A stretch of DNA of 64,000 bases from Candidatus Campbellbacteria bacterium (GCA_024653945.1 JANLIT010000002.1:11940-75939); one strand, 5' to 3'; positions 32,995 to 54,281 are shown, counted from the first letter of the stretch. The notes: generated from the sequence alone by a model not told the origin. Translations and numbers: made by a program.

Positions 32995-33078
32995 TGTAAA
33001 TCCGAAATTCGAATATCGAAATCCGAAAGAATATTTAATTTGTTTCGTGCTTCGTGCTTCGTGCTTCGTGCTTTGGTT
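32995..33078. repeat. r-protein leader repeat (short variant) upstream of rplO
   Basis: aaatccgaaattcgaatatcgaaatccgaaag..(ttcgtgc)x4. Confidence 0.55.
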
Positions 33079-33733
33079 TTTGTACGTTGTGCGTCTTAAT
33101 TTTCTTCGTGAGTTGTGAGAGTGCTTTAATTGTTGCGGTTGCGTTGTTGAGTTTGTTCTTACTACGAGAAAGAATCTTTGCACCAACACCACGAACTCCT
33201 GCGAGTTCAAGCACATCACGTACTGCACCTCCAGCAATAATACCGCGTCCTGGTGCTGGATAAAGCTTTACAATACCACTACTGTACTTCACTTGTACTT
33301 CGTGTGGAATTGAGCCGTCTTCAGTTTGTGAAATAACAATTTTATTTTTGAGTGCGCTTCGGTATGCCTTCTCTACTGCAAGTGCTGTGTCGCCCGCCTT
33401 ACCTGTGCCTACACCAACGGCACCACGGTGGTTTCCCGCAACAACACACACGCTGAAGCTAAAACGACGTCCTCCAGCAACCACACGAGTCACACGGCGA
33501 ATATCAATGATGCGCTGATCAAATTCAGGTTTAATACGGGGTGCGCGTCCGCGAGGAGTGCGACGAGAATTTTTCTGCATACGTCGGTCTTCACGTGATG
33601 CATTTACTGGCGCACTTCCTTTTGGAGCCACTACAACAACGTCTGCCTCAATGTCGGCAGCAAGTGTGTCCTCCACAACAGCGACCTCTGTTGTTTCAAT
33701 CTCGTTTTCTTTTGTACGAATATCGTCGGGCAT
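33035..33733 (-). CDS. rpsE: 30S ribosomal protein S5, with ~70-aa N-terminal extension
   Basis: core ..VTRVVAGGRRFSFSVCVVAGNHRGAVGVGTGKA..; no L30 gene between this and rplO. Confidence 0.9.
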   Translation of the reverse strand: MPDDIRTKENEIETTEVAVVEDTLAADIEADVVVVAPKGSAPVNASREDRRMQKNSRRTPRGRAPRIKPEFDQRIIDIRRVTRVVAGGRRFSFSVCVVAGNHRGAVGVGTGKAGDTALAVEKAYRSALKNKIVISQTEDGSIPHEVQVKYSSGIVKLYPAPGRGIIAGGAVRDVLELAGVRGVGAKILSRSKNKLNNATATIKALSQLTKKIKTHNVQKPKHEARSTKHETN

Positions 33734-33804
33734 AAATAATGGAAGTTGGAGGTTTGAGGTTAGAGGTTGGATGAGTTAGTGATTAGTTTTAGTTTGGTTA
33801 TTTG

Positions 33805-33824
33805 CCTGCCTGCCGGCAGGCAGG
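33805..33824. repeat. perfect 20-bp GC palindrome CCTGCCTGCCGGCAGGCAGG in the rpsE leader
   Basis: identical copy at 41223-41242. Confidence 0.6.
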
Positions 33825-33864
33825 AAATTTGATATTTGATATTGTTTCGTGTTTTGTACTTTTT

Positions 33865-34212
33865 TTAGAACTTTAATCCTCCTTTACGTGCACCATCTGC
33901 AACTTCTTTAATGACACCCGTGTATGCAAATCCTCCTCGATCAAATACTACAGCTGTAATCTTTTTTGTAAGTGATGTCTTTGCAACAATTTCTCCGAGT
34001 TCAAATGCTTTTTCTTTTGCAGTTCCCTTCTTCATTCCCTTTGTCGTACCGGCAACAAGCGTCATTCCTTTTGTATCATCAATAACTTGAAGCGTTGTGA
34101 ATCGATTTGATTTAAACACAGCCAAACGTGGGCGTACTGATGTACCAGAAATCTTCGCGCGGATACGTCCTTGTCGTCGAACTCGTTTTTCTTTTTTTGT
34201 TGGGGCTTTCAT
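33865..34212 (-). CDS. rplR: 50S ribosomal protein L18
   Basis: ..RPRLAVFKSNRFTTLQVIDD.. Confidence 0.9.
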   Translation of the reverse strand: MKAPTKKEKRVRRQGRIRAKISGTSVRPRLAVFKSNRFTTLQVIDDTKGMTLVAGTTKGMKKGTAKEKAFELGEIVAKTSLTKKITAVVFDRGGFAYTGVIKEVADGARKGGLKF

Positions 34213-34300
34213 ATAAAGTTGAAGTTGGAAGTTTGAGGTTGGGAGTTGGTTTTTGTTTTCTTTGTTATTTGCTATTTGTCATTTGCTATTTCCCCTTACT

Positions 34301-34834
34301 CTACGCTGCTCGTTTTCCTTCCTTACGACGAACCACTTCGTCAGAGTATCGGATTCCCTTTCCTTTGTATGGTTCTGGCACTTTTTGGGAACGAATTGTT
34401 GCAGCAAATTGTCCGAGAAGTTCTTTGTCTATAGAAGAAAGGGAGAGTGTGTTTTTCTCAATAGTGAGCGTAAGACCTTCAGGAATTGGGAGAACAACAG
34501 GATGTGAAAAACCAAGTTGCATGACCAAATCTTTTCCTTTCACTTCTGCGCGGTACCCAACTCCTTCAACAATAAGTTTTTTCTCGTAGAGTTTGTTGAC
34601 ACCCGCAACCATGTTCTTGATGTGTGATGCGTATGTTCCCCACAATGCTGACCACATTTCTGGATGCTCCTTTGGAGCAAGTGTCACCACGCCATCTGCA
34701 ACAGAAATGGAAATGTCGCTCTTGAACGTTCGGTGTAATTCACCAAGTGGTCCTTTTACGACAACGCTACCGTCAACAACAGTAATTTCTGTTTTTGGGG
34801 GAATTGTAATGTGTTGTTTGCCGATGCGGGACAT
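34301..34834 (-). CDS. rplF: 50S ribosomal protein L6
   Basis: MSRIGKQHITIP..V.V.GPLGEL. Confidence 0.9.
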   Translation of the reverse strand: MSRIGKQHITIPPKTEITVVDGSVVVKGPLGELHRTFKSDISISVADGVVTLAPKEHPEMWSALWGTYASHIKNMVAGVNKLYEKKLIVEGVGYRAEVKGKDLVMQLGFSHPVVLPIPEGLTLTIEKNTLSLSSIDKELLGQFAATIRSQKVPEPYKGKGIRYSDEVVRRKEGKRAA

Positions 34835-34835
34835 A

Positions 34836-34970
34836 CTATTTTTAAATTCGAAATACGAATATCGAAATTCGAAACAAATTCGAAGTTATAGATTTTAAAG
34901 TTTTAAGCATTTGAATATTCATATTTTGTGCTTGTTTCGAGCTTCGTGCTTCGATATTCGTGCTTATCTT
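34836..34970. repeat. ~130-bp r-protein leader repeat upstream of rplF
   Basis: tttttaaattcgaaatacgaatatcgaaattcgaaacaa...catttgaatattcatattttgtgcttgtttcgagcttcgtgcttcgatattcgtgcttat. Confidence 0.65.
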
Positions 34971-35363: not shown

Positions 35364-35414
35364 GGTAGTAAGTAGTATGTAGAAAGTAGTAGGTAGAAAG
35401 TAGTAAGCAAAAAA

Positions 35415-35684
35415 TTACCAAGATGCCTTCTTAATACCTGGAATCATTCCTTTATTTGCAAGTTCGCGGAAACAAATACGACAGAGACCGAATTCGCGCA
35501 TGTATCCTCGTGGGCGACCACATTTAAAACAACGGTTTTTTGTTCGAACTGGAGATGCGTTCTTGCGCAATGCCTGAAGACCCTCGTAATCGTGGGCCTC
35601 TTTCAATGCAGTTCGCTTTGGAGCGGATTTTGCCTGCATCACTGCTCTTTTTTTGTCTCGTGCAATAATTGCTTTTCGGGCCAT
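35415..35684 (-). CDS. rpsN: 30S ribosomal protein S14 (zinc-ribbon type, CxxC..CxxC)
   Basis: [13 protein letters not shown]...[38 protein letters not shown]; ATG at 35684 (track ORF starts at 35726). Confidence 0.85.
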
Positions 35685-35912
35685 ATACTTTTTTCCAAAA
35701 AAAATTCTGCCTCTCGATGTGTCCATGGACCAATTCGGACGAATTGGCCGGCTGACAGATAACGAGGCGGTGGTCTCCTCCGGCGCCTATTGGCTCTGAG
35801 AGGACAAGCTCCCTATTTAGAAGCCCCACCATACTACCAGAAGTCTCCAAAAAGGGCAAGAAAAAGAGAAGCCCCGCTAGCACAAAGTGCGCCGGCGGGG
35901 CGGAAAGAACAA

Positions 35913-36761
35913 CTACTTTGACCAGGATTGTCTGCCCTTTGCCGAAGCAATTCGGCACCACAACAGGGATTGGGCTATGAGCCGATTTCGATGCCGTCGC
36001 TCTTCCTCATCACGAAGGTCTCTTGGTGTCTTGTGCTTACCACCACCGAGGAGAGCCCCAACGGCAAGGCTGTTTATCAACCACTGTTCCTTGTATTTCC
36101 CGAACAATTCATCCGACACAAATTCAAGGTAGTGGAGAATCTGAGACGCTTGATCTCGTTCAGAAATCTTCCTGCTCTTTTCCTTTTCGGATGGTAGCCG
36201 AGTTCCACCGGTAAACGTGAGCATATCGGCAGAACCCCAAAGCGCAAGTGCTCGAACCAGTGGCCCTGATTCCTGATAGTGGAAGTGCCACGGGCGCCCG
36301 TTCGTCCTAGGACCCACTAGAAGCATGGATATCGCTTCTCTCCAGGTGTGAAATTCCTTGCAGAGAAACTGCTGGATTCGAGACGGGTACGGAGGACGTA
36401 GCAGACATTCGTGCACAACCCCAAAGAACGAAATGAGGTCATTACGAAGAATGGCCGACCCTTCTTCCTTTTCGTCTCGAGAAAGCAGGTAGGTCTTGCC
36501 CAAAACCTCATCTGAAGCGATGACTCTGCGTGCTGTGTCCGCGACCCTGCCCTCTTCACCAACTTCGCGAAACACATTGAGCAGAAAGCGGGCCTTGTCT
36601 TTGAACAACTGACGCCCTTCCTCATCCCCTTCGATGGGCGGGTCATTCCAAAGACTGCCACAGGCGTAGAGCAGGCCTATGGCCTCCGCTTCCGTACTGA
36701 CCCTCTGCCAGCACTCCTCGAACTGCTCCCACGTACTAATGACCAACAACTCTTTTTTCAC
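35913..36761 (-). CDS. GC-rich (~58%) 282-aa hypothetical protein inserted between rplE and rpsN
   Basis: GTG start with SD AAAGGAGATCCACC; composition step relative to the flanking r-protein genes. Confidence 0.5.
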   Translation of the reverse strand: MKKELLVISTWEQFEECWQRVSTEAEAIGLLYACGSLWNDPPIEGDEEGRQLFKDKARFLLNVFREVGEEGRVADTARRVIASDEVLGKTYLLSRDEKEEGSAILRNDLISFFGVVHECLLRPPYPSRIQQFLCKEFHTWREAISMLLVGPRTNGRPWHFHYQESGPLVRALALWGSADMLTFTGGTRLPSEKEKSRKISERDQASQILHYLEFVSDELFGKYKEQWLINSLAVGALLGGGKHKTPRDLRDEEERRHRNRLIAQSLLWCRIASAKGRQSWSK

Positions 36762-36854
36762 GGTGGATCTCCTTTCTATAGTGTCGCTCGATGTTTGAGC
36801 GACGGGTCGATCCGCCGTTTATTCTCCACACACAGACACACAAGTCAAGCTACG

Positions 36855-36897
36855 AAGAAAACCGCCTGCTGGCGGTTTTCGTGCTTCTACAAAATAT
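36855..36897. repeat. partial palindromic terminator element directly 3' of rplE
   Basis: gaaaaccgcctgctggcggttttcgtgcttctacaaaatatgag; shares the ttcgtgctt..aaaatatgagacgag tail with 31200-31240. Confidence 0.55.
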
Positions 36898-36912
36898 GAG
36901 ACGAGCGGAGAG

Positions 36913-37485: not shown

Positions 37486-37490
37486 ATCTT

Positions 37491-37606
37491 TTTAAATCCG
37501 AAATCCGAATATCGAAATCCGAAACAATATCTAATTTCTAAGGTTTTAAACATTTGAACATTCATACTTTGTGTTTGTTTCGAGTTTCGTACTTCGATAT
37601 TCGTAC
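37491..37606. repeat. ~130-bp r-protein leader repeat upstream of rplE
   Basis: aaatccgaaatccgaatatcgaaatccgaaacaatatctaatttctaaggttttaaacatttgaacattcatactttgtgtttgtttcgagtttcgtacttcgatattcgtactt. Confidence 0.65.
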
Positions 37607-37822
37607 TTATATCTTCTTTACATTTGAAACGTGCAACGGCATCGACTTCTCAATAATCTGTCCTTTTTGGCTTCCCTTGCGTGCTTTCTGGTGTCGTTTT
37701 GATTTGTTAATTCCTTCAACAACAACCATGTCTTTCTTTGGCAACGCACGAAGAATCGTGCCCGTGGCACCCTTATCTTTTCCCGTCAATACTTTTATTT
37801 TGTCTCCTTTTTTAACGTGCAT
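37607..37822 (-). CDS. rplX: 50S ribosomal protein L24
   Basis: MHVKKGDKIKVLTGKDKG..G.I; ATG at 37822 (the track ORF extends spuriously into the repeat). Confidence 0.85.
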   Translation of the reverse strand: MHVKKGDKIKVLTGKDKGATGTILRALPKKDMVVVEGINKSKRHQKARKGSQKGQIIEKSMPLHVSNVKKI

Positions 37823-37955
37823 ATTTTTTAAATCCGAAATCCGAATGTCGAAATCCGAAACAAATTCGAAATCATGAGTGTTGGGGTTTTTAACATTTGA
37901 ACATTCATATTTTGTGCTTGTTTCGAGCTTCGTGCTTCGATATTCGTGCTTATTC
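37823..37955. repeat. ~130-bp r-protein leader repeat upstream of rplX
   Basis: near-identical to 39441-39570. Confidence 0.65.
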
Positions 37956-38327
37956 TTATACCACTTCCGGTGCCATTGAAACAATCTTTTGAAAACCGTG
38001 GTCGGCGAGTTCACGTGGAACGGGGCCAAAGATTCGGTTTGCCTTTGGCTCTGGCTTTATCTTATCAACAAGCACAACTGCATTTTCATCAAAACGAACG
38101 TACGAACCATCTTTACGACGAAATGCCTTTGTCTGACGAACAACCACCGCATGTACGACGTCTTTCTTTTTTGTTGCCTTACGAGGTTGTGCAACTTGAA
38201 TTGAAATAACCACCTTATCTCCAATCTCTGCGTAACGGCGCTTTGAACCACCGAGCACTTTGAATACACGTCCGAGAGTTCCTCCGGAGTTATCAGCTAT
38301 CACAACAATTGAACGTGGTTGAATCAT
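37956..38327 (-). CDS. rplN: 50S ribosomal protein L14
   Basis: MIQPRSIVVIADNSGG.. Confidence 0.9.
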   Translation of the reverse strand: MIQPRSIVVIADNSGGTLGRVFKVLGGSKRRYAEIGDKVVISIQVAQPRKATKKKDVVHAVVVRQTKAFRRKDGSYVRFDENAVVLVDKIKPEPKANRIFGPVPRELADHGFQKIVSMAPEVV

Positions 38328-38438
38328 AAATAATAGGGGTTGGGGGTTAGTAGTTGGTGGTTAGTGATTAGTTTTTGTTTGGTGGTTGGATTTGGTTTGT
38401 TTTTCCTAACGGTCAAACCAATGACCAACTTCTCATTC

Positions 38439-38690
38439 CTAACTTCTAACATCCATTACTTTGAAATGTTTATCTTTTGAAATTGGCCGTGTTGCAACAA
38501 TCGTTACCTTGTCTCCAATGTGCTTTGTGTTGCCAGCATCGTGTGCCTTAAACTTCTTGTGCTTGGTTACATACTTTCCATACTTTGGATCTTTGATGTA
38601 ACGCTCAACAAGCACCACAATAGTGTCTTTCATTTTATCTGACACAACTATGCCGACGAGTGTTTTTTGTTTTATTTCTTGTGTGTCCAT
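38439..38690 (-). CDS. rpsQ: 30S ribosomal protein S17
   Basis: ..KTLVGIVVSDKM.DTIVV.VER.. Confidence 0.9.
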   Translation of the reverse strand: MDTQEIKQKTLVGIVVSDKMKDTIVVLVERYIKDPKYGKYVTKHKKFKAHDAGNTKHIGDKVTIVATRPISKDKHFKVMDVRS

Positions 38691-38784
38691 ATAAAGTGGA
38701 GGTTGGAAGTTTGAGGTTGGTGATTGGTTTTAGTTTAGTATAGTTTTTGCTACTTGCTATTTGTCATTTGTCATTTGTCATTTG

Positions 38785-39003
38785 TTATTTATTGCCTCTA
38801 CTCGTAAGTTCTGTAAGCGCGCGGGCAACATCTTTCTTACTCTCTCGCATCTTCTTCACATCACGGCCTTTACTTCCTGACATTGCGAACCTATCTTGCC
38901 GTAGTGCTTCTCGCTTCTCAGCGATAAGAACCATGAGTTCAGTATCGTTTTTCTTTTGTATGTCAGTTGTTTTGGTCATGTTCGGGTATACTACAGTGCG
39001 CAT
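38785..39003 (-). CDS. rpmC: 50S ribosomal protein L29
   Basis: 72 aa helical; ..ELMVLIAEKREALRQDRF.. Confidence 0.85.
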   Translation of the reverse strand: MRTVVYPNMTKTTDIQKKNDTELMVLIAEKREALRQDRFAMSGSKGRDVKKMRESKKDVARALTELTSRGNK

Positions 39004-39440: not shown

Positions 39441-39570
39441 ATATTTTTTTAAATTCGAAATCCGAATGTCGAAATCCGAAACAAATTCGAAATCATGAGT
39501 GTTGGGGTTTTAAACATTTGAACATTCATACTTTGTGCTTGTTTCGAGTTTCGTACTTCGATATTCGTGC
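39441..39570. repeat. ~130-bp r-protein leader repeat upstream of rplP
   Basis: tttttaaattcgaaatccgaatgtcgaaatccgaaacaaattcgaaatcatgagtgttggggttttaaacatttgaacattcatactttgtgcttgtttcgagtttcgtacttcgatattcgtgcttat. Confidence 0.65.
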
Positions 39571-40230
39571 TTATTTCTTGTCAAAGATATCCCCACGGTA
39601 AATCCACACACGGATACCAATCTGACCTTGTGGAATGTGTGCCTCATCATGTGCATAATCAATATCTGCACGGAATGTCTGCAACGGAATACGCCCACGC
39701 TTAATCTGTTCACGGCGTGCCATGTCAGATCCGCCGAGACGTCCTGAAAGATGAATACGGACTCCTTGTACGTCACGGTTTGCCATAACTTTCTCAACCG
39801 TCTGTTTCAACACACGACGAAATGGTGTTCGTTTCTCAATTCCTTCAACTGCCATCGCAGCCACAATTGCCGCGTGCGATTCGGGAGATTTTATTTCTTC
39901 AACTTCAAGTTTGAGTGTGTCCGCACTTGCAAGTTTGTTCTTAAGAACAAACGTGTCCAATTCTTTCTTGAGTTTTGCGATACCCTCACCAGAACGTCCA
40001 ATGATAAGACCGGGACGAGATGTTTTGATGACGATACGCAACTGTGAGTTACGTCGTTCGATATCCACACCACTCACATACATCATACGCGTAAGCTGTG
40101 TAATTTTTCGACGAAGTAACACGTCGGTTCGGAGAAACTTTTGATATTCACCCGCACGAGCAAACCATCGTGATTGCCAATCACGCAAGATACCTAGACG
40201 GTGTGCAAATGGATGTACTCGATGTGTCAT
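39571..40230 (-). CDS. rpsC: 30S ribosomal protein S3
   Basis: KH domain ..IIGRSGEGI..; 219 aa. Confidence 0.9.
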   Translation of the reverse strand: MTHRVHPFAHRLGILRDWQSRWFARAGEYQKFLRTDVLLRRKITQLTRMMYVSGVDIERRNSQLRIVIKTSRPGLIIGRSGEGIAKLKKELDTFVLKNKLASADTLKLEVEEIKSPESHAAIVAAMAVEGIEKRTPFRRVLKQTVEKVMANRDVQGVRIHLSGRLGGSDMARREQIKRGRIPLQTFRADIDYAHDEAHIPQGQIGIRVWIYRGDIFDKK

Positions 40231-40269
40231 ATAATAATTAATTTCAAAGTTACAATATCAAATTTCAAA

Positions 40270-40674
40270 TTATTTTACTGTTTTCTTTACTGTCTTTTTT
40301 GATGCGCTCTTTTTGACATTTGTTTTTTGAACTTTGTCATTTTTTAACTCTTGTACTGCAAGAGTTAAAATAATATTACTTGAGTGCTTATCAATCTTTG
40401 ATGAGCGACCTTGGGCACGTGGAAGTGATCGGTGCATTGTCAAACCCTTATCAACGCGAAATTCTTTTATAACCAAAGATCCTGTATCTGTAACACCGTG
40501 TGTCTTTGCATTTGCAGCTGCGGAGTTAATCATTTTTGCGAGAGGACCTGTCGCTCGTTTCTGTGTAGCGTTCAAAAGGACAAGCGCACGTGCAACCGTC
40601 TTACCCTTAACCAAGTTCGCAACAAGGCGAACTTTTCGTGGTGACTGGCGGTAATTTTTCAAGTACGCTTTCAT
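40270..40674 (-). CDS. rplV: 50S ribosomal protein L22
   Basis: 134 aa L22 family. Confidence 0.9.
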   Translation of the reverse strand: MKAYLKNYRQSPRKVRLVANLVKGKTVARALVLLNATQKRATGPLAKMINSAAANAKTHGVTDTGSLVIKEFRVDKGLTMHRSLPRAQGRSSKIDKHSSNIILTLAVQELKNDKVQKTNVKKSASKKTVKKTVK

Positions 40675-40753
40675 ATAAAGTGGGGGTTGGAAGTTTGATG
40701 TTAGAGGTTGGATGAGTATTTTTGTTACACGTTACATGTCTTGTGGTACATGC

Positions 40754-41101: not shown

Positions 41102-41222
41102 AGTGAATAAAAATCGGCCTCGTGGCCTTTGGAGATAATAGCAAAAAGTGAGCGGATGTCAAACCCACTCTTATGATTCGGCGACTTGAGTTAACCTCAG
41201 ATATTTTCCAACTTCTAATTTC

Positions 41223-41242
41223 CCTGCCTGCCGGCAGGCAGG
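41223..41242. repeat. perfect 20-bp GC palindrome CCTGCCTGCCGGCAGGCAGG in the rpsS leader
   Basis: identical to 33805-33824. Confidence 0.6.
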
Positions 41243-41375
41243 CAACCTCCATTATTTTAGACTTTTCCACAGGGGTTGCTTTTTTGTATTGATACGGTAT
41301 AGTGCTTGAGGATGTTATTACGAGCGCACATACCCTATCCGCGGTTCAGCGGGTGGGTTTCTGGAGGAAGTAGCT

Positions 41376-41579
41376 ATGTGCAAGAAGTTTGAAGTGGTGG
41401 AACAAGCCCATCGAGAAAAGCGTAGAATCCGAGTCACTGGGCCTGGAACCAACTTCACCGGCACCGTCGAGAAGGTTAACCCCTCTCTCCTTTCGGCCGA
41501 AATCAGAGGTGAGGGGACTCACACCCACTTCTTCGCTGGCGGAGAAAGCGCCCGCGACTTCACTGTCACGCTGGTCTAG
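41376..41579 (+). CDS. GC-rich small protein (67 aa) within the rpsS-rplB insertion
   Basis: SD GGAGGAAGTAGCT before the ATG; ~60% GC. Confidence 0.4.
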   Translation: MCKKFEVVEQAHREKRRIRVTGPGTNFTGTVEKVNPSLLSAEIRGEGTHTHFFAGGESARDFTVTLV

Positions 41580-41757
41580 CTCCACAGGGCCAGAACCAAG
41601 AACCCCAAAAAGGCGGCAATCCTACAAGGAAGCCGCCTTTACTCATTTCTGAAACATACAGAGTAAGTTTCTTTTTTATATTTAACGTACGGAGTGAACC
41701 CCGCCCTATATACAAACCCCGCCTGCAGTCTTGCGGGCGGGGTTACAACCAAGCAAT

Positions 41758-42150
41758 TCAGTGGACTGTTTCTCCTGACGGGTAAAACATCTTCCAGTAG
41801 TGACGTCCCATACCAGTAATGCAGAAGCATTGAACGAGAGATGTTCTCCCGAAGACTAGCCCAACGAACTCGGGCTGGCGCTGAAGGCTGAACTCCACCA
41901 ACCCATCGGTGCACATTGCCCGAAGTTCGAGCAGTATCTTTTCCTCAGTGGTCACCCTTAGAGCAACCAGTGGGGAGAACGCCCGAACCCTCTTCACCAA
42001 AGACGGGAGGGACATCCAATCGTCGGCAGCAACCAAATGCTTGAGAATTTCCTCTTTGAGAGTCGGGCCACTCTTCTTGCCCCAATCTTCTTCGAGAAGT
42101 TCCAAGGCTCCCCACAACAAGGTCCTTACCCTGTTCCAGTTTGTGGCCAT
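41758..42150 (-). CDS. GC-rich hypothetical protein (130 aa) within the rpsS-rplB insertion
   Basis: SD AAAGGAGACTCGAA before the ATG. Confidence 0.4.
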   Translation of the reverse strand: MATNWNRVRTLLWGALELLEEDWGKKSGPTLKEEILKHLVAADDWMSLPSLVKRVRAFSPLVALRVTTEEKILLELRAMCTDGLVEFSLQRQPEFVGLVFGRTSLVQCFCITGMGRHYWKMFYPSGETVH

Positions 42151-42279
42151 TTCGAGTCTCCTTTTTCTGGTTTAGTCTCGATAATCAAATCTGATAAAAA
42201 TGTAGCCGAAAATAAAGTCACTGTCAAGTTTTGTTGAACATCTGTTGACAATCTTTCAACAACAAACTATACTCATTTC

Positions 42280-43062
42280 ATGTCCCCTACTACAAAACTC
42301 CGTGAACTCGGACTCAATAACAAAGAAATCACTGTGTATCTCGCCTTACTCAAACACGGCCGACGAACACCTGCCGCACTCTCACAACTTACAAAGATAA
42401 ACCGTGCGACGGTATACAGTGTTGCAAGAAATCTACAATCAAAGGGTCTTATTGCTGAGGATATCAGCGGTCATTCTCGTTTCTTTCTACCCCTTCCTCC
42501 CAACAATTTGAATCAACTTATTGATCGCCCAAAACGTGAGCTACAAGAAAAGGAAGATCTTGTTCGCAACACCATTGAAGAGTTATACCAACTCGCTTCA
42601 GAACATGAATATCCTGTTCCAAAAATTCGTTTTGTCCAGGAAGGCGATCTCGAAGATTTTTTGTTTGGTAATACAGTGAGATGGGAGAAGAGTGCTCTGG
42701 AACAAGACGGAACATGGTGGGGCTTTCAAGACCATAGTTTTGTGGAGGTGTATGAAAAGTGGATTCACTGGTCGTGGACAACACTTGAGGGAAAGGATGT
42801 GCGTCACCGCGCAAAAATCATAACGAACACATCGGAAATTGAAAAAAGGTTGCAGCCAAAATATTCAAGAGAAAAGCGCGACATGAGATTTCTCCCTGGA
42901 GAAAAGTTCATGTCCACGATGTGGGTCGTCGGCGAATACGTTATTATGATTGCAACCAAACATCACCCGTTTTATCTCGTCGAGATTCATGATGTGTTAC
43001 TTGCGCACAACATGCGAGAAATGTTTAAAAAACTTTGGGGGCAAACTCGCGAAATTACCTAA
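42280..43062 (+). CDS. TrmB-family winged-helix transcriptional regulator
   Basis: N-terminal HTH LGLNNKEITVYLALLKHGRRTPAALSQLTKINRATVYSVARNLQSKGLI plus a ~170-aa C-terminal domain. Confidence 0.65.
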   Translation: MSPTTKLRELGLNNKEITVYLALLKHGRRTPAALSQLTKINRATVYSVARNLQSKGLIAEDISGHSRFFLPLPPNNLNQLIDRPKRELQEKEDLVRNTIEELYQLASEHEYPVPKIRFVQEGDLEDFLFGNTVRWEKSALEQDGTWWGFQDHSFVEVYEKWIHWSWTTLEGKDVRHRAKIITNTSEIEKRLQPKYSREKRDMRFLPGEKFMSTMWVVGEYVIMIATKHHPFYLVEIHDVLLAHNMREMFKKLWGQTREIT

Positions 43063-43101
43063 CACTAAAACACCTGCGGATATACCGCAGGTGTTTTAGT
43101 G

Positions 43102-43944: not shown

Positions 43945-44070
43945 AAAAATAAATCTGAAATTCGAATATCGAAATCCGAAACAATATCTAATTTCTAAAT
44001 TCTAAGGTTTTAAACATTTGAATATTCATATTTTGTGCTTGTTTCGTATTTCGAAATTCGTGCTTCGTAT
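43945..44070. repeat. ~130-bp r-protein leader repeat upstream of rplB
   Basis: aaatctgaaattcgaatatcgaaatccgaaacaatatctaatttctaaattctaaggttttaaacatttgaatattcatattttgtgcttgtttcgtatttcgaaattcgtgcttcgtat. Confidence 0.65.
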
Positions 44071-44532
44071 TTATACTATTTCGATAGTATCTCCCTTTTT
44101 AAGCGTTACGTACGCCTTCTTTCCACCCCCTACGGTTGCCGCTTTTCCACGTCGTGACAGTTTTACCTTTGTTGCAATCTTTGTCACGCGAACGTGTACT
44201 GGTGTGATACCGTACACATCTTTTATCGCGGATGCAATGAGACTCTTGTTTGCATATGACGCGACATCAAAGACATACACATTGTTTTGAGACACGCTCG
44301 TTGCTTTTTCAGTGATGCGTGGGCGCGTGAGAATATCTGCGTTTACTTTTCCAGACGCAATTGTTTGTTTGATTTTCTTTTCAGGTTGCTTTTTCTCTAC
44401 GGCAACAACTTTCTTTGGTGCGTCGTCATGAATATCGTCTTTCACGTGTACTGTGTCGGCAACAGCTTTGCGCGCAAACAAAGAGGTCTTTGCCTTTGCA
44501 CCGCTTGAGTTGTCTTTTTTTCGAAATAACAT
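44071..44532 (-). CDS. rplW: 50S ribosomal protein L23, with ~50-aa Lys-rich N-terminal extension
   Basis: core ..DILTRPRITEKATSV...KAYVTLKKGDTIE; start MLFRKK in the same context as the rplP start MLFPKK. Confidence 0.8.
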   Translation of the reverse strand: MLFRKKDNSSGAKAKTSLFARKAVADTVHVKDDIHDDAPKKVVAVEKKQPEKKIKQTIASGKVNADILTRPRITEKATSVSQNNVYVFDVASYANKSLIASAIKDVYGITPVHVRVTKIATKVKLSRRGKAATVGGGKKAYVTLKKGDTIEIV

Positions 44533-44664
44533 ATATTTTTTAAATTCGAAACCCGAATGTCGAAATCCGAAGCAGGTTCGAAATCATGGGCGTTTGGGTT
44601 TTAAATATTTGAACATTCATATTTTGTGTTTGTTTCGAGTTTCGTGTTTCGATATTCGTGTTTA
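44533..44664. repeat. ~130-bp r-protein leader repeat upstream of rplW
   Basis: tttttaaattcgaaacccgaatgtcgaaatccgaagcaggttcgaaatcatgggcgtttgggttttaaatatttgaacattcatattttgtgtttgtttcgagtttcgtgtttcgatattcgtgtttac. Confidence 0.65.
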
Positions 44665-45423
44665 CTACTGTTTCTTTTCAACCCACCGTTTTACGGCTTC
44701 ATCTGGATTAACCACAATGAGGTATGTGTATGTCATTGCGTCAACGGCATTGAGATTGCGAACCTCTTCAACGGCAACATTTCCTAGGTTTCTAAAGCTT
44801 TTCTTTACCATCTCGTCTGCTGTTGTTGTAAGAATGAGCGCTGCGTTTTGCTTTTTACCAATCATTTTTTCAAAACCTGCAATCTTTGAAAATACACCGA
44901 GAATATCTTTGGCTTCTGCTGTTTTTGGTGTACCAAATGTAATTGAGTCAACAAAGAGAATTTCTTTATCCTTAAGTTTGCGTGAGAGGACGCTGAAAAG
45001 AGCTGATGCGCGCATCTTTTTAGGAATCGTCACACTGTAATCCTTGTCTGAACGTGGGCCGTGAGTCACACCTCCTCCCTTCCATAATGGAGAGCGGATT
45101 GAACCGTGACGTGCGCGTCCTGTTCCTTTTTGTCGCCATGGCTTTTTGCCTCCACCACGAACTTCACCGCGACCTTTTGTGTGAGCACCTGCACGACCTG
45201 CGCGTGCATTGTTCTGCATGCCGAGTACCACTTGGTGCACGAGGTCTGCGTTCCAATTCACACCAAAAATCTGCCCCGGAAGTGTAACGGTGCTTACCTC
45301 TTTTCCTTTGATATCAAAAATAGGAGCTTTCAAATCCTTGCCGTCTTTTGCAACAACAACCTTCTTTGGTTTGAGTGCCTTAGTTGTTTTTACTGTTTTC
45401 TTTTGTGCTGGTTTTTTTTCCAT
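44665..45423 (-). CDS. rplD: 50S ribosomal protein L4, with N-terminal extension
   Basis: 252 aa L4/L1e family. Confidence 0.9.
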   Translation of the reverse strand: MEKKPAQKKTVKTTKALKPKKVVVAKDGKDLKAPIFDIKGKEVSTVTLPGQIFGVNWNADLVHQVVLGMQNNARAGRAGAHTKGRGEVRGGGKKPWRQKGTGRARHGSIRSPLWKGGGVTHGPRSDKDYSVTIPKKMRASALFSVLSRKLKDKEILFVDSITFGTPKTAEAKDILGVFSKIAGFEKMIGKKQNAALILTTTADEMVKKSFRNLGNVAVEEVRNLNAVDAMTYTYLIVVNPDEAVKRWVEKKQ

Positions 45424-45464: not shown

Positions 45465-46103
45465 TTAGCTTCCCATCACTTCAACAACGGTACCACGTCG
45501 TCCTGGGACTGCTCCGGAAATAAAAATCTGTCCGTTTGCAACGTCAACGAGAAGAACCTTGAGGTTTTTAACCGTGATTCGGTCTCCACCCATACGTCCA
45601 CCCATACGACGTCCTTTCATAACACGCTGAACTCCACCAGCTCCGATTGAACCTGGCTCACGCTCAGAGTGTTTCTGTCCGTGTGTTCGGCGACCTCCTT
45701 TGAAACCGTGTCGCTTCACCACACCCTGAAAACCTTTTGATTTGGATGTACCTGAAACGGTCACTGTGTCGCCAGGAGTAAACACACCCGCATCAATCAT
45801 AGTCCCGAGTGGGAGTTCTGCAGGATCAGAAACCGGAAATTCCATAAATCCCGCAAACATACCCTTTGACTTTTGTGCGTTGTTCACATTTTTTTCTTTT
45901 CGTACGTCATACCCAACCTGCACAGCAGTGTACCCGTCAATATCTTTTGTTTTGATTTGTGTGACAACGGCAGGAGAAACACGAATAAGCGTTGCTGGGT
46001 GCACAACACCGTTGTCATCAAAGACTTGTGTCATTTCTTGTTTTGTTCCGACGAGAAATTTCATGAATTTGTTTTGAATACGAGTGAGCCCTGGCTCGGA
46101 CAC
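45465..46103 (-). CDS. rplC: 50S ribosomal protein L3
   Basis: ..KQEMTQVFDDNG...ATLIRVSPAVVTQIKT; 212 aa. Confidence 0.9.
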   Translation of the reverse strand: MSEPGLTRIQNKFMKFLVGTKQEMTQVFDDNGVVHPATLIRVSPAVVTQIKTKDIDGYTAVQVGYDVRKEKNVNNAQKSKGMFAGFMEFPVSDPAELPLGTMIDAGVFTPGDTVTVSGTSKSKGFQGVVKRHGFKGGRRTHGQKHSEREPGSIGAGGVQRVMKGRRMGGRMGGDRITVKNLKVLLVDVANGQIFISGAVPGRRGTVVEVMGS

Positions 46104-46297
46104 ATCCGAGCTAGGGCTCTAGTGTCCAGAGGTTCCTGTGGGAACATGGCGCATACGTGGGGACTACTATACACGACCACCTTTCAGAGTGCAAGTTCTC
46201 AGTGATAAAATACTTGACAAACATACTTTTCGTAGTACCATACACACCAGAACCTGACCGAAATGAATTCGGCAGAATTGACCTTTGGGAGGATGGG

Positions 46298-46603
46298 ATG
46301 ACGAAAAAACTCAACGGAAGGTTCATGGTGTTGCAGATGCGCCTAAACAAACTGCTCTTCGAGCAGATCAAGCTTAACGCTAGAGTTGCCACGTACGAGA
46401 CACAGAAGGCAACGGTGCGAGGAGAAATCAACTTCCTATTGCGTAGCCAGGGAGCGAGGACTATCTTGGGTGAAAGGGTCTATGCACTGATTGAGTCAAA
46501 CCACGCCGATGCATCTCAACGGGCCAGCGCAAACAATCTCGAAATCATGGGAATCATGATCGAGATGAACAAAGAGATTCCCGCACCCGATTCGAAACTC
46601 TGA
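46298..46603 (+). CDS. small hypothetical protein (~101 aa), cassette gene 1 between rplC and rpsJ
   Basis: SD GGGAGGATGGG before the ATG; followed by terminator cgaccagctagtacagctggtcgttttttt (46613-46650). Confidence 0.45.
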   Translation: MTKKLNGRFMVLQMRLNKLLFEQIKLNARVATYETQKATVRGEINFLLRSQGARTILGERVYALIESNHADASQRASANNLEIMGIMIEMNKEIPAPDSKL

Positions 46604-46767
46604 TGTCCACAACAACGCCTCGACCAGCTAGTACAGCTGGTCGTTTTTTTATCCAGCACTTAAAGTTAAGTGCTGGATTTATTCCGATTTGATTTTTGAT
46701 TGACAAGACACACCACAAAGAATATTGTTGCCCCAGAAATGTATCCCAACTCCAGAAAGGAGCGCGT

Positions 46768-47085
46768 ATGAAATTTGCCATCGCCATAGGTCCAAAAGGT
46801 GGTGGACCTCACAAAGGCTTCATCGCTGAATCTGAGGAAAACATCAAAATACGAACCGCACGTCTTCGAGAACATGGATTCACCATCGTTCCTATCAACG
46901 TTTCCCTTCTACCGTCTGACACTGAGGTCGCAAAGATGTTTGCGGAGAGTCAAATTCACCGGTCTATCGACCCAACTACCACCGAACTCTTTGAGGCCGT
47001 CATGAACTTGGGAATCAAGATTGGCTGGAAAGCTAGGGGACAAGACATCGTCTCCCACATCAGTGGTTGTTGTCGAAAAAAGTAA
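46768..47085 (+). CDS. small hypothetical protein (~105 aa), cassette gene 2; paralogous context to gene 3
   Basis: sigma70-like promoter TTGACA-17-TATTGT (about 46692-46720), SD AGGAGCGCGT, terminator cacgaccagcccaccagctggtcgtttttg (47107-47140). Confidence 0.5.
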   Translation: MKFAIAIGPKGGGPHKGFIAESEENIKIRTARLREHGFTIVPINVSLLPSDTEVAKMFAESQIHRSIDPTTTELFEAVMNLGIKIGWKARGQDIVSHISGCCRKK

Positions 47086-47210
47086 CTTCAACCAAACACG
47101 CTCTCACGACCAGCCCACCAGCTGGTCGTTTTTGTTTTATTGACAAAACAGACCATGAAGAATAGTGTTACCCCAGAATCAATCACGCGTTCCACATAAG
47201 GAGAAAAGTT

Positions 47211-47510
47211 ATGAAGCTCGGCGTCGTACTTCGCTCTGATGGTACAGTTTTCGGAGACATCATGTCTCCAACCGCGGAAGGCTTCGGCAACGCAATGGCT
47301 CGTGTACCAGATGGATTCATGGTCATTGAGGTCTCCGTCGACCTCGATCCAGAACAAGCTTCTGCGGTTCAGAAGCTTGGAAACAACGAGCTCTCAATGG
47401 AAGAGCTCCGACGCATAAGCCATTTGATCCGTCTCGGAATTCAGATGGGAATTGAGGTTCAGAAAGTACTCGCCATCTTCCGCATCCATGATGGCCGTCG
47501 AAAAAAGTAG
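47211..47510 (+). CDS. small hypothetical protein (99 aa), cassette gene 3
   Basis: promoter TTGACAAAACAGACCATGAAGAATAGTGTT, SD AAGGAGAAAAGTT, near-identical terminator (47527-47560). Confidence 0.5.
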   Translation: MKLGVVLRSDGTVFGDIMSPTAEGFGNAMARVPDGFMVIEVSVDLDPEQASAVQKLGNNELSMEELRRISHLIRLGIQMGIEVQKVLAIFRIHDGRRKK

Positions 47511-47639
47511 CGACCGCCGGATGTACCCCACGACCAGCCCACCAGCTGGTCGTTTTTGTCTTAAAACATACGGAGCGAGCCCTAAAGGATTGCTGTTTGT
47601 AGTCAATCACTTCGTTCTTGAACAAACAGGGAACCTCTA

Positions 47640-47758
47640 TTTTTTGAATTTTTTTGTATTTAACATACGAAGTGAGCCTATTACAACAAAGAAACTCTCG
47701 GAGCCCGATGAGGGTGAGAGTGAGTGCGTTTTCAGTAGAAAACGACACGTGTTCTTTG
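47640..47758 (+). repeat. dispersed ~100-nt element (candidate small RNA / cassette-border repeat): ..tttaacatacgaagtgagcc..aaactctcggagcccgatgagggtgagagtgagtgcgttttcagtagaaaacgacacgtg
   Basis: homologous copies at 51588-51700 (opposite strand), 53340-53400 (3' part) and 41670-41712 (5' part). Confidence 0.55.
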
Positions 47759-47780
47759 TTGTAAGTAGGTGAGCGGAGAG

Positions 47781-50680: not shown

Positions 50681-50704
50681 TTTTGAATCTAGTGTTTCTT
50701 CAGA

Positions 50705-51700: not shown

Positions 51701-51819
51701 CTGTAAAAAGAAAACAATTGACAGATACTGTTTTCAGGCGTACGTTTGCGACAGAACATACGCAGGTTAACGCATGTATCCTCTTGAGCCTTGGCTAGGA
51801 GGAAGAAAGGGTCCATCCA

Positions 51820-52494
51820 ATGAACGCTGGAGAACTGAAGGTATTGGTGGGAAAGTGTTTCGGACAATTTTTCCTCAAAATCTGGACATCCGTGGCTTTG
51901 GTGGCCATCGGCACGGTCATACTCGGCATCGAACTTTTCGTACGTGAGAGTGGGCCGAATCTTTTTCTTTTCCTTATCGGGGTAATACTCATCGTTTGGG
52001 GGCTTGCTCTCTCGATACGGTTCACCAACAAGCTGAGGGGGCTCCGACGGACCCTGGCCGAGTACGAGGAGGCGTGGCGCACACGGATGTGGACGGGAGG
52101 AAATCTCGGTCTTGTGATTTCTTCTCTCGTGGAAAACCGTCTGGTGGATATGTGGCAGCGGGGCGTCTTTGCCGAAGAGCTGGTTAAGACACTTGGTGTC
52201 GGCCCATACCAAGTGGATGCTCTTTTCGAGGTGCCGTTCACGAATGGGGACATTCGCGATGAAGAGGTTGATTTACAGACCGGGTTGGGATGGCTACTCC
52301 ACGGTAAGTATCTCGTTCCGGCGGAGCACGGCTTTGGGGCGTTCGTCTGGTCGGACACGAAGGTGTACGAGAAATTCTTCGCACTTCCAGAGAATAGGAT
52401 GCGCGACGACTTCGACCCGAACAAGGAACCCGAGCTTCTCGACGCCGTGCGCGATGGCCGTGTTTCACTCCCCGGTGGTGTAAAAATCACCTAA
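51820..52494 (+). CDS. GC-rich membrane-anchored hypothetical protein (224 aa)
   Basis: 2 N-terminal TM helices; AGGAGG upstream; terminator cccgag..ctcggg after the stop, plus palindromic ggaagccaggcttcc hairpins. Confidence 0.5.
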   Translation: MNAGELKVLVGKCFGQFFLKIWTSVALVAIGTVILGIELFVRESGPNLFLFLIGVILIVWGLALSIRFTNKLRGLRRTLAEYEEAWRTRMWTGGNLGLVISSLVENRLVDMWQRGVFAEELVKTLGVGPYQVDALFEVPFTNGDIRDEEVDLQTGLGWLLHGKYLVPAEHGFGAFVWSDTKVYEKFFALPENRMRDDFDPNKEPELLDAVRDGRVSLPGGVKIT

Positions 52495-52597
52495 ACTGCA
52501 CTGCTCTTTTCACGAAGAACCCGAGTTCGCTCACGCGACCTCGGGCTTTCTTTTTGGAAGCCAGGCTTCCCCGTTGGAAGCCTGGCTTCCAAAAATG

Positions 52598-53152
52598 CTA
52601 CAACCCCAATTTATTCACTAATTTTCGATGCGGATAGTCAAACACATCGCGCAGGAGTTTGTCATTCATGCTCGTGCGGTAGGAAAAATCTTTTGTTGAA
52701 AATGCAGAGTAGCGAATGTCAGTTCCGCATTCCGCTTCAAGTTGTGTGATTGCTTTTGCTAATGCTTTATCATCAATTCTATCGGCAATAACAAGCACAT
52801 CCGTTCGTGAATCTTCTTCTTCAATAAAAATACCAGACACAACAAGTAATTTGAGTGCACCACATTTTGAAACACGTGACACCACAGGTACATCTGCAAG
52901 CATGTTGCCGAGCATGAGGTGTTTCACACTCATCATGTGTGGAAATTCTGGGTTGAGTAACCATCCACGTGCGCGTTTTTTAAGAAAGCCTGCTGACTTC
53001 AAACGCGCGAGTGGTGTCTTGAGCGACGATGATACAATACTTGTTTTTTCAGCAAGCGTTGCTGTCCCGTAGATACCTTCTGGGTGAAACAGAAAAAAAC
53101 GCATCAGTCGAACCGGCGCACTTCCTCCAAATAATTTTGCGAGTAGATCCAT
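52598..53152 (-). CDS. hypothetical protein, possible winged-helix regulator
   Basis: 184 aa; weak HTH-like segment; low confidence on function. Confidence 0.35.
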   Translation of the reverse strand: MDLLAKLFGGSAPVRLMRFFLFHPEGIYGTATLAEKTSIVSSSLKTPLARLKSAGFLKKRARGWLLNPEFPHMMSVKHLMLGNMLADVPVVSRVSKCGALKLLVVSGIFIEEEDSRTDVLVIADRIDDKALAKAITQLEAECGTDIRYSAFSTKDFSYRTSMNDKLLRDVFDYPHRKLVNKLGL

Positions 53153-53319
53153 CCCGATAGTGTTATATGCCGAATAATATGTAGAACCTTACAATACTCT
53201 TTTCTATTAAAATACCATGATACACGGGTCACTGAAAAAACTATCGGGATCCATACAAGAGTTAGTATACCCTCCTTTTAAAACAAAAACACCCCTTTTG
53301 GGGGTGTTTTTATGCACTT

Positions 53320-53645
53320 TTGTGCTGAAAAAGATTACTTCAAAGTTACATGTCACGCGTCGTTTTCTATTGAAAACGCGCTCGGAGCCTCCTTCGGCAC
53401 AACCTACTGGTTGCCCACCTCAATGAGTACATTGTTATAACCAAGTTACAAATCTACTAATTTGCCTACTGGGTCGCACCGTCGTGCTCCGTCTCAAAGT
53501 GACTCTATTTGAGAGTCACTTTGCCACGAGTTTCTAGCTTCCTCATTGTGCTTCGCACAATTCCGTCGCAAGAACTCTCGGCCCCGTCTCGGTGCTCTCT
53601 CCTGCTTACGCAGGCGCACCTGCGACCGAAAAGTAACTTTGAAAT
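53320..53645 (-). ncRNA. candidate structured non-coding region (~300 nt, ~52% GC) between the rplL stop and an intrinsic terminator (53290-53318)
   Basis: several perfect hairpins (aaagtgactct-attt-gagagtcacttt; gcagg-tgcg-cctgc), bounded by inverted repeats ttacttcaaagttac / gtaactttgaa; contains the 3' module of the dispersed element (cgcgttttcaatagaaaacgacgcg). Confidence 0.25.
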
Positions 53646-54140
53646 TTATTTTAAAGTTACCTTTCCGCCGGCTTCCTCAATCTTCTTCTTCATAACCTCT
53701 GCATCTTCTTTCTTCACTGCCTCCTTGATAACGCCAGGTGCGCCATCAACGAGATCCTTTGCTTCCTTGAGACCAAGACCTGAAACTTCCTTCACAGCCT
53801 TGATAACAGCAATCTTGTTCTCCCCAACTGATGTAAGTTCAACAGTGTACTCGCTCTTTTCATCTGCACCTGCTGCACCTGCTGCAGGAGCTGCTGCGAC
53901 AGCAACTGCTGACACCCCAAACTTTTCCTCAAACACCTTCACGAGTCGGTTCAAATCCAACACGCTCATTTGTTCAATTGCGTCAATAATTTTCTTGAAC
54001 TCGGCTGGAATTGCTACATCCGCAGTTTTCTCTACTGTCTTTGCAACTGGCTTGTCCGCCACAGCTGGGGTTGTTGTTTCCTCTACTGGCTTGTCCGCCG
54101 TAGCATCTGCGGAGGCGGAAGTTTTTGTTTGTTCATCCAT
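53646..54140 (-). CDS. rplL: 50S ribosomal protein L7/L12, with ~35-aa N-terminal extension
   Basis: ..[70 protein letters not shown]; ATG at 54140. Confidence 0.85.
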
Positions 54141-54281
54141 ATGTATTAGGTTAAATTCGAAATTCAAATATCGAAATCCGAGACAATATCTCATTTTCTA
54201 AATCAAAATGTTTTAAACATTTGTACATTAGAATTTTGAATTTGTTTCGTGTTTCGTACTTCGATTTTCGTGCTTATAGTA
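54141..54281. repeat. ~130-bp r-protein leader repeat upstream of rplL
   Basis: ttaaattcgaaattcaaatatcgaaatccgagacaatatctcattttctaaatcaaaatgttttaaacatttgtacattagaattttgaatttgtttcgtgtttcgtacttcgattttcgtgcttat. Confidence 0.6.

Follow-up and report, generated by a model that had tools for sequence, protein, structure and literature searches.

Intervening sequences (IVSs) of 23S rRNA genes are the described systems closest to the element reported here. The IVS of Coxiella is 428 nt long, lies in helix 45, has terminal inverted repeats, is cut by RNase III in the middle of its stem and contains an open reading frame (ORF) for an S23p protein (PF05635); it also contains tandem heptamers in variable number, and its origin and mobility are open (PMC4990558). 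Excision by RNase III is known for the IVSs of Coxiella, Salmonella and Leptospira, and the origin of these elements, the mechanism of their mobility and the function of the S23p/PF05635 protein have been questions without an answer for about 30 years (PMC4990558). PF05635 has a relative in Avd, an accessory protein of diversity-generating retroelements (PMC10053308), and rRNA genes of bacteria of the Candidate Phyla Radiation (CPR) contain 23S_rRNA_IVP ORFs as well as short unclassified insertions at IVS sites (PMC11270868). Among repeats outside rRNA, Correia elements are bound and cut by RNase III and alter the expression of adjacent genes (PMC2649163), and runs of the heptamer TAACTGA lie just 5' of start codons, including those of ribosomal protein (r-protein) operons, in Beggiatoaceae, Cyanobacteria and Bacteroidetes (PMC4679880). 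We analysed a stretch of 64,000 nucleotides from a Candidatus Campbellbacteria bacterium (GCA_024653945.1, JANLIT010000002.1:11940-75939), hereafter the window, in which a repeated element precedes eight genes of large-subunit r-proteins. The window belongs to an ultra-small bacterium of the Parcubacteria/CPR, and among named sequences its S3 protein has the best homologues in Candidatus Campbellbacteria and in Parcubacteria metagenome-assembled genomes. We consider it likely that these apparent leaders are ORF-less miniature IVS-like insertions of a widespread family of palindromic elements, which are co-transcribed with their neighbours, fold into an RNA hairpin and would be plausible targets of RNase III.

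Repeat search, alignment and nhmmer agreed in finding eight homologous elements in the window, all on the minus strand, which is the mRNA-sense strand; the S10-spc cluster and the L10-L7/L12 gene pair lie on the minus strand. This bears out the preliminary description, in which repeats had been placed before rplO, rplF, rplE, rplX, rplP, rplB, rplW and rplL, and Pfam assigned the genes 3' of the copies to L15, L6, L5, L24, L16, L2, L23 and L7/L12. A profile built from the copies scored the eight with E values from 8e-18 to 8e-42, and the mean column identity of their alignment was 78%. The motif TTCGNNNTTCGNNNTTCG occurred 29 times, against 0.02 occurrences expected, and every occurrence was within the copies. 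The elements had been described as nearly identical, about 115-135 bp long and built around a central core; this is correct for seven of them (about 130 nt) and not for the copy before rplO, which is about 93 nt long and has no core. Each copy begins at the stop codon of the gene upstream and ends 8-15 nt short of the next ATG. The elements, with a decayed ninth copy, are given below with their nhmmer E values.

32993-33085, minus strand: short copy before rplO (L15), E = 8.8e-18; right arm 32998-33031, no central core
33040-33082: left-arm heptads of the rplO copy (AAGCACG, four times), inside the 3' end of the S5 ORF (rpsE, 33035-33733)
34839-34969, minus strand: full copy in the S8-to-rplF (L6) spacer, E = 6.5e-38; left arm 34932-34960, right arm 34844-34877
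37489-37613, minus strand: full copy in the L24-to-rplE (L5) spacer, E = 2.3e-37; left arm 37575-37603, right arm 37494-37527
37825-37955, minus strand: full copy in the L14-to-rplX (L24) spacer, E = 9.2e-42; left arm 37918-37946, right arm 37830-37863
39446-39577, minus strand: full copy in the S3-to-rplP (L16) spacer, E = 8.2e-42; left arm 39539-39567, right arm 39451-39484
43948-44077, minus strand: full copy in the L23-to-rplB (L2) spacer, E = 3.8e-34; left arm 44039-44067, right arm 43951-43984
44537-44668, minus strand: full copy in the L4-to-rplW (L23) spacer, E = 4.3e-37; left arm 44630-44658, right arm about 44542-44575
54148-54279, minus strand: full copy in the L10-to-rplL (L7/L12) spacer, E = 1.2e-32; left arm 54242-54270, right arm 54153-54186
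764-851, plus strand: decayed ninth copy, between smpB and the tmRNA gene, E = 2.8e-4

The start codon of L7/L12 is at 54140 (Pfam Ribosomal_L12 for 53646-54140). The ninth copy, bordered by smpB (872-1321, minus strand) and the tmRNA gene (387-760, minus strand), has lost its CpG dinucleotides to TG/CA, and its orientation relative to transcription is opposite to that of the r-protein copies. The first residues of L16 and L23 (MLFPKK and MLFRKK), which had been taken as part of the context of the repeat, are the native N-termini of these proteins, because they are kept in relatives with a 1-nt spacer and no element. In S5, the tail at the C-terminus is encoded by left-arm heptamers (AAGCACG, four times); the insertion displaced the original stop codon and lengthened the protein. 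The S5-L15 junction (33035-32989) holds no L30 gene, an absence that is usual in CPR bacteria. The tmRNA gene was found only by a permissive Rfam run (79 bits, as compared to a gathering score of 47) and was missed by ARAGORN and by Rfam with default filters.

In the mRNA sense, a full copy is composed of a left arm (AAGCACG-AATATCG-AAGCACG-AAnCTCG-AAACAA), a centre of 55-60 nt that contains ATATGAATGTTCAAATGTTTAAAAC, a right arm (TTGTTTCG-GATTTCG-AYATTCG-GATTTCG-RATTT), an A-rich tail and the ATG. The arms are inverted arrays of heptamers, CGAAnnn facing nnnTTCG, with a period of 7 in both (Tandem Repeats Finder, TRF) and four to five heptamers per arm (AAATCCG, AAGCACG, AATATCG and others, facing their complements). 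The consensus is predicted to fold into a long hairpin of CGAA:UUCG blocks and internal loops of 2-3 nt, with 21 conserved pairs. The left arm and inverted right arm proposed earlier are therefore real as inverted arrays, while their complementarity is partial. Among the window copies, none of the 21 pairs showed compensatory changes. Minimum free energies of the mRNA strand ranged from -16 to -29 kcal/mol (z = -1.5 to -4.1). When the two strands were compared, the mRNA strand gave -22 to -29 kcal/mol, and in six of the eight copies the complement strand folded more stably (before rplW, -38.0 as compared to -21.9 kcal/mol). Rfam returned no leader for the window or canonical copies, either at the gathering threshold or at E <= 0.05-1, and gave only chance matches to miRNA hairpins. 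Terminator-like sites in the window copies were at the background level of shuffled sequences, and no PF05635 ORF was present within the copies, nor a PF05635 gene anywhere in the window.

A mini-ORF of 25-26 codons (MNVQMFKTPTLMISNLFRISTFGFRI) is open in five of the seven full copies (before rplF, rplX, rplP, rplW and rplL); it opens in the middle of the element and ends 8-13 nt 5' of the main ATG (for example 39451-39529, minus strand). Its frame is broken before rplE and rplB. The mini-ORF could still permit termination-reinitiation. A leader peptide conserved across copies was rejected, since the frame is broken in these two copies and the peptide is not kept. We also rejected the reading of ATGACC as the vestigial start codon of a PF05635 gene: the complement of ATGACC occurs in the right half too, and the motif is therefore a feature of the heptamer vocabulary.

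For the distribution of the element, one genome per species was scanned for exact matches to the right-arm pattern TCGRATTTCGAYATTYGNNTTTC; this gave at least 120 loci, about 2 being expected. A hidden Markov model (HMM) built from the window copies alone matched all 120 pattern-derived loci listed, and 172 of its matches spanned at least 100 of 139 positions, with E values down to 2e-23. The hosts among the matches listed represent at least 12 phylum-level groups: Planctomycetota (Pirellulales, Gemmataceae, Phycisphaerae, Brocadiaceae), Verrucomicrobiota/PVC, Lentisphaerae, Kiritimatiellia, Desulfobacterota and other 'delta' groups, Gamma- and Alphaproteobacteria (Pseudomonadota), Aminicenantes, WOR-3, Nitrospirota (Nitrospirales), Chloroflexota (Dehalogenimonas), Omnitrophota, Bacteroidota (Bacteroidia), Binatia and many CPR lineages. 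Some of the loci are on complete chromosomes or megabase contigs, the host genomes have a G+C content of 34-70%, and several genomes contribute four to six loci each among the matches listed. The pattern was also found on 8 predicted viral contigs. A blastn search of a plasmid collection gave no match, and a metagenome scan with the lineage-specific core CACAAARTATGAATRTTCAAAT gave four matches, all of them chance matches in coding DNA. Judged by these profile matches, the window elements belong to a family that crosses phyla.

Within this family the ends of the element are sharp (AAAT[TC]CGAA...TTCG[GA]ATTT) and the flanks are unrelated. The elements lie in intergenic DNA, in contexts of every kind. 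Full copies were found in sense between co-directional genes (23), antisense (10), between divergent genes (6) and between convergent genes (4); among elements beside gene starts, 38 were sense as compared to 18 antisense. Of 38 genes downstream of elements in the family set, just two encode r-proteins (S7 and S13). Others are ilvB, dnaJ, glmS-like and etfA-like genes, and the element also lies between tRNA genes. A specific colonisation of r-protein spacers, as suggested in the preliminary description, is thus seen in the window, with all eight copies before large-subunit genes, and not across the family. In 48 elements the arms did not covary: native arms formed 26.7 of 35 pairs, and arms swapped between elements formed 26.9 ± 0.12. 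Across the family the arms draw on one heptamer vocabulary. A G-U strand asymmetry was absent from the family; in the window it is the complement that is favoured. Taken together, there is no evidence for a promoter (see below), a known leader or a covarying structure.

The family was also found in rRNA genes. The 23S rRNA gene of a Saccharibacteria locus (L036, 3425-6545; 1318 bits) has at least four ORF-less copies in variable helices, each insertion being 130-210 nt long with extra small hairpins at its flanks, and a fifth copy lies in the upstream spacer. The insertion sites are at model positions of about 161-170, 283-289 and 583, and near the 3' end; position 583 is presumably helix 25, a classical IVS site. 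One of these insertions aligned to the rplF copy of the window (blastn E = 2e-14). The orientation of the element in this rRNA is opposite to that in the r-protein mRNAs. Since the same element sits in variable helices of a 23S gene, it is of the kind known in rRNA as IVS.

A third setting was revealed by 6 of the 120 loci listed, in which inverted arms, 390-515 bp apart or cut by the edge of the locus, surround a single ORF, homologous between these loci and 117-132 aa long. Pfam and NCBIfam assigned this ORF to PF05635 (23S rRNA intervening-sequence protein) and TIGR02436 (four-helix-bundle protein). The six hosts are a member of the Verrucomicrobiae, a deltaproteobacterium, a contig labelled Alcaligenaceae, Brocadia, Dehalogenimonas and a metagenome-assembled genome of the Patescibacteria. 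The PF05635 subfamily has at least 8000 sequences at E <= 1e-10, many of them on contigs shorter than 2 kb, as expected because repeats break assemblies. When homologues were looked up independently, arms flanked three of three, which brings the cassettes to nine in all. These three cassettes are in sense, at the groEL/dnaJ, ABC ATPase/MacB-type permease and radical-SAM/GT2 junctions. The groEL-dnaJ and radical-SAM/GT2 cassettes take up the entire spacer: they begin at the stop codon upstream and end 5-10 nt short of the following ATG, an arrangement also seen in the ORF-less window copies. At the ABC junction the right arm similarly reaches to 8 nt before the following ATG, but the left arm comes after 45-60 nt of unrelated sequence. 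On these alignments and domain assignments, the family includes both the 23S rRNA insertions and the PF05635 cassettes.

The r-protein junctions were then compared with those of related contigs, in which several of them are tight. The S8/L6 junction, filled in the window, is 4-5 nt long in relatives, the S5/L15 junction 1-6 nt, and the L4/L23 spacer 1 nt in L001, L003 and L005; the S3/L16 and L14/L24 junctions measure 5-12 nt in L004 and L005 (12 nt for S3/L16), and at L23/L2 the relatives have other short heptamer runs or 10 nt. At four of the window junctions, all relatives sampled have either no insert or other short sequences. Because several junctions are tight in related contigs, the window copies are insertions into once-coupled, formerly tight cistron junctions. 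In the comparison of related genomes, for which the preliminary description had called, S8/L6, S5/L15 and L4/L23 are tight, and relatives too have an element at the junctions before L16, L24 and L5. All three are occupied in L130, a close relative (S3 protein 98% identical, coding DNA 70-89% identical), and that before L24 is occupied also in L001 and L003. The counterparts in relatives are built of CCAA/TTGG or TCAA/TTTG heptamers and not of CGAA/TTCG, with 0-1 CpG per copy in L130 as compared to 8-9 in the window. A genome-wide depletion of CpG as the cause of these CpG-less counterparts was rejected, the observed/expected ratio of CpG in the relatives' loci being at least 1.0. Pair counts over the positional counterparts were 73.7%, as compared to 70.2% in shuffles, with one clean GC-to-CG swap, a weak and ambiguous signal, and two of the three counterparts in L130 folded no better than shuffles. 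These three junctions appear to hold older insertions, which in the relatives are of a CpG-poor variant. A different class of hairpin leader, with G+C-rich arms (for example CCCAGCACTTAG...CTAAGTGCTGGG) and a conserved tail (GATTTTATAAATCTCGCTAACGCTCGCTAATAAAATC), precedes L16, L5 and L23 in two of the relatives (L003, 5009-5168 and 6796-6962; L004, 6950-7124).

Compared with the 23S IVSs of Coxiella burnetii and Leptospira, the element shares terminal inverted repeats forming a long stem, an optional PF05635 ORF in the loop, tandem heptamers, a sporadic and horizontal-looking distribution, insertion into heavily transcribed genes, the existence of short ORF-less forms and, through the Saccharibacteria 23S gene, homologues in rRNA, one of them at helix 25. 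It differs in that the window copies are located between the cistrons of protein-coding operons and not in rRNA, and in that its arms consist throughout of CGAAnnn heptamers, as compared to GACAGAT in Coxiella, the classical IVSs having been compared by description. Transposable elements of the miniature inverted-repeat type (MITEs), such as Correia/CREE of Neisseria and ERIC, are likewise 100-160 bp long, multi-copy, intergenic, co-transcribed and hairpin-forming, with terminal inverted repeats, and the nine copies of 93-132 nt in 64 kb fit this picture. The MITE that had been named as the alternative comes much closer, the copies being short, non-coding, multi-copy inverted repeats, with the qualification that no TA or other target-site duplication and no transposase parent were seen in the family; its arms are tandem heptamers, and its hosts span a dozen or more phyla, whereas MITEs keep to a genus or family. 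REPIN-RAYT systems resemble it in having one small gene flanked by an inverted repeat together with many dispersed gene-less doublets; there the gene is a Y1 transposase and here an Avd-related four-helix-bundle protein of PF05635, and the present arms are about 35 nt of heptamers without a GTAG/CGTC head. The TAACTGA repeats (MacGregor 2015, PMC4679880) are also 7-nt units before start codons that cross phyla without a known transfer mechanism, but in them one unit is repeated directly, an inverted partner is lacking and no associated gene is known. The window element agrees with them in its period of 7 (TRF) and in a right arm that lies 8-15 nt before the ATG, and departs from them in that its units vary, it has an inverted partner and TAACTGA is absent. 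Another class of heptanucleotide repeat is the cyanobacterial STRR. The autoregulatory leaders of r-protein operons (L10, L20, S15 and the S8 site of spc) share the location in r-protein mRNA and a predicted stem-loop near the start codon; here, however, one element lies before eight different genes and precedes non-r-protein genes as well, it shows neither covariation nor an Rfam match, and it is absent in near relatives. In the searchable literature, which leaves out subscription journals, we found no description of heptamer-armed IVS-like elements outside rRNA or of their cross-phylum spread.

We propose that the full-size form of the element encloses one PF05635 gene and that the window copies would be gene-less derivatives, inserted into junctions of the S10-spc and L10-L7/L12 operons in the Parcubacteria/CPR lineage. 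The copies would be co-transcribed with the r-protein genes, because there is no terminator or promoter between the cistrons and PF05635 cassettes lie in sense in operons. Their RNA would form a long interrupted hairpin by which the upstream stop codon and the downstream start codon are brought together, and RNase III, by analogy with rRNA IVSs and Correia elements, would cut the stem and split the polycistronic mRNA. For the window elements themselves we put such processing slightly below an even chance, because their stems are weak. The downstream fragment would retain an A/U-rich tail (TTTAAAAAAT-ATG) as an unstructured start region without a Shine-Dalgarno sequence, and leaders in the window generally have no Shine-Dalgarno sequences. 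The orientation that survived would be the one whose mRNA strand folds more weakly, and the uniform sense orientation may reflect counter-selection of the RNA orientation with the stronger fold. Any effect on the synthesis of r-proteins would be a side effect of insertion, with no dedicated feedback circuit. A wider proposal, which we make tentatively and hold to be rather doubtful, is that heptamer inverted repeats and the PF05635 gene together form an unrecognised, cross-phylum class of self-propagating cassette, with the classical 23S IVSs as one manifestation and the window 'leaders' as ORF-less derivatives. The PF05635 protein, a known homopentamer, would read the four to five heptamers of each arm and drive spread or maintenance, possibly through an RNA intermediate; the targets would be transcribed spacers (tips of rRNA helices and intercistronic junctions), and the stems would be RNase III-processed 'IVSs of mRNAs'.

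Several observations weigh against reading the leaders as IVS-like insertions. The mobility of the element is only inferred, because neither a transposase nor a target-site duplication was found: inverted arms 0.4-3 kb apart enclose ordinary genes (dnaK, ispA/xseA, LmbE/GNAT and the like) or the PF05635 ORF and no transposase, and no duplication was present at 53 sharp-ended elements or between filled and empty junctions, although very short A/T duplications could escape. The window hairpins are predicted to be weak and interrupted, and may be poor substrates of RNase III. All eight copies are in sense and before large-subunit genes, an arrangement with a probability of about 0.03 (hypergeometric, 17 large-subunit and 7 small-subunit genes in the window). 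In relatives as distant as 81% identity in S3, the junctions before L16, L24 and L5 contain an element of unchanged length, so that a retained function could be at work there. Finally, copies within one genome are 86-95% identical and positional counterparts 55-62%, with CG changed to CC/GG or TC in every heptamer of the relative's counterparts. Simple decay does not account for this concerted difference, because the relative's loci are not depleted of CpG; gene conversion among the copies, a takeover by another subfamily or co-evolution with a trans-acting factor could each explain it.

If the leaders were instead a dedicated cis-regulatory device, that is a hairpin operator for an r-protein or an assembly factor that coordinates the translation of large-subunit genes, their placement in the window (eight of eight before large-subunit genes, in sense and abutting the start codon), the occupied L16, L24 and L5 junctions of relatives and the slight excess of pairs over the counterparts would all be accounted for. 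We regard this as quite improbable. The element precedes S7, S13, the ilvB, dnaJ, glmS-like and etfA-like genes named above and many others; it is found in antisense, between tRNA genes or convergent genes, and within 23S rRNA; and two of the occupied junctions (S3/L16 and L14/L24) are without it in L004 and L005. Its arms do not covary, two of the three L130 counterparts fold no better than shuffles, the complement outfolds the mRNA strand, no Rfam leader matches, and one structure before eight different genes fits poorly with mimicry of a single rRNA binding site. The common autoregulatory RNA target suggested in the preliminary description is refuted at the level of the family: full-length matches lie in at least 120 loci, beside unrelated genes, in both orientations and without covariation, which is the pattern the description itself had named as contrary to it. 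Its companion suggestion, that each element is a promoter driving the r-protein gene downstream, is hardly credible. Correia elements are known to create promoters (PMC2649163), and three window copies have a weak match (TCGACA-17-AAAAAT, 9/12), yet sigma-70-like sites are no commoner than in shuffles (20 as compared to 17.8 ± 4.4), and the -10 of the weak match ends 1-3 nt before the ATG, so that the transcript would begin inside the gene. A strong promoter (11/12) lies elsewhere, before S19 at 41162-41135, and PF05635 cassettes with the same arms sit in sense inside operons.

A further possibility is that the heptamer array and not the hairpin is what matters, having been domesticated as a platform that is read on RNA by a protein with a site of about 7 nt (S1, a cold-shock protein or a pentamer of the PF05635 type are candidates); this protein would set translation or stability of downstream cistrons in an organism lacking Shine-Dalgarno sequences. 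In its favour, a single heptamer vocabulary supplies both arms, and complementarity is not required; nearly every spacer of the window has period-7 arrays of three further families that end just before the ATG; the same candidate binders were proposed for the TAACTGA runs upstream of starts (PMC4679880); and the concerted heptamer differences between close relatives are as expected under co-evolution with a trans-acting reader. Against it, no binder is identified and the window lacks a PF05635 gene, elements lie also downstream of genes, antisense and in rRNA, and slippage alone can generate and homogenise such arrays (Mrazek 2007, as cited in PMC4679880). We judge this platform unlikely, and keep to ORF-less IVS-like insertions as the explanation of the eight leaders.

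Other repeats of the window are mostly of the same period: most TRF rows have a period of 7, 14 or 21. A second family of leaders consists of G-free heptamers (CCAACCT/CTAACCT/CCAACTT ... CCACTTTAT-ATG) directly before S5, L18, L14, S17, L22, L35 and L20; it was also seen in L001 and L130, and it contains CCUCC, which is like the 3' tail of 16S rRNA and not its complement. At least two further period-7 families fill most of the other spacers (before S8, nusA, infC, S3 and others). The arrays are located as follows.

3301-3334 and 3536-3568, plus strand: G-free heptamer leaders
33731-33776, 34210-34255, 38325-38370, 38688-38733 and 40672-40717, genes on the minus strand: G-free heptamer leaders
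1456-1508, 35365-35407, 54979-55045 and 62223-62282: CTTACTA-type period-7 arrays
22244-22282, 34261-34291, 38759-38790 and 58845-58869: AAATGAC/AAATAGC-type period-7 arrays
40240-40271 and 58886-58924: further period-7 arrays

Heptamers of the AAATGAC type also follow the element in an Aminicenantes locus (L009). The S10-spc cluster is interrupted by three stretches of 1-2 kb: 35727-36912, between S14 and L5, with an ORF of 282 aa that has no Pfam match; 41102-43101, between L2 and S19, with a TrmB-like gene on the opposite strand and the strong promoter before S19; and 46065-47780, between S10 and L3. L001 and L004 have unannotated ORFs at the same sites of interruption. A perfect palindrome of 20 nt (CCTGCCTGCCGGCAGGCAGG) occurs twice, in the S5 leader (33805-33824) and upstream of S19 (41223-41242), with 0 occurrences expected. 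A 96-nt module with a terminator-like hairpin is present downstream of ndk (21429-21524) and of secY (31138-31233), the two copies being 91% identical. The gene-poor stretch between secY and adk (1.36 kb) has internal repeats (30056-30097/30698-30739 and 30595-30643/31046-31094), and in L003 the same spacer contains a solo right arm of the element.

These results place one element in three settings, namely rRNA genes, PF05635 operon cassettes and, between genes in at least 12 phylum-level groups, ORF-less miniatures. For CPR bacteria, they indicate that the most compact and most expressed operons tolerate insertions of 130 nt that break translational coupling, and they bear on how translation of internal cistrons starts in CPR organisms lacking Shine-Dalgarno sequences. 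For annotation, they advise caution, as repeated 'leaders' before ribosomal genes are not necessarily regulators. The r-protein leader of the window is ordinary once explained, and the family behind it is of real interest: what was a curiosity of rRNA becomes a general family of elements, with thousands of natural insertions and a candidate protein-nucleic acid pair.

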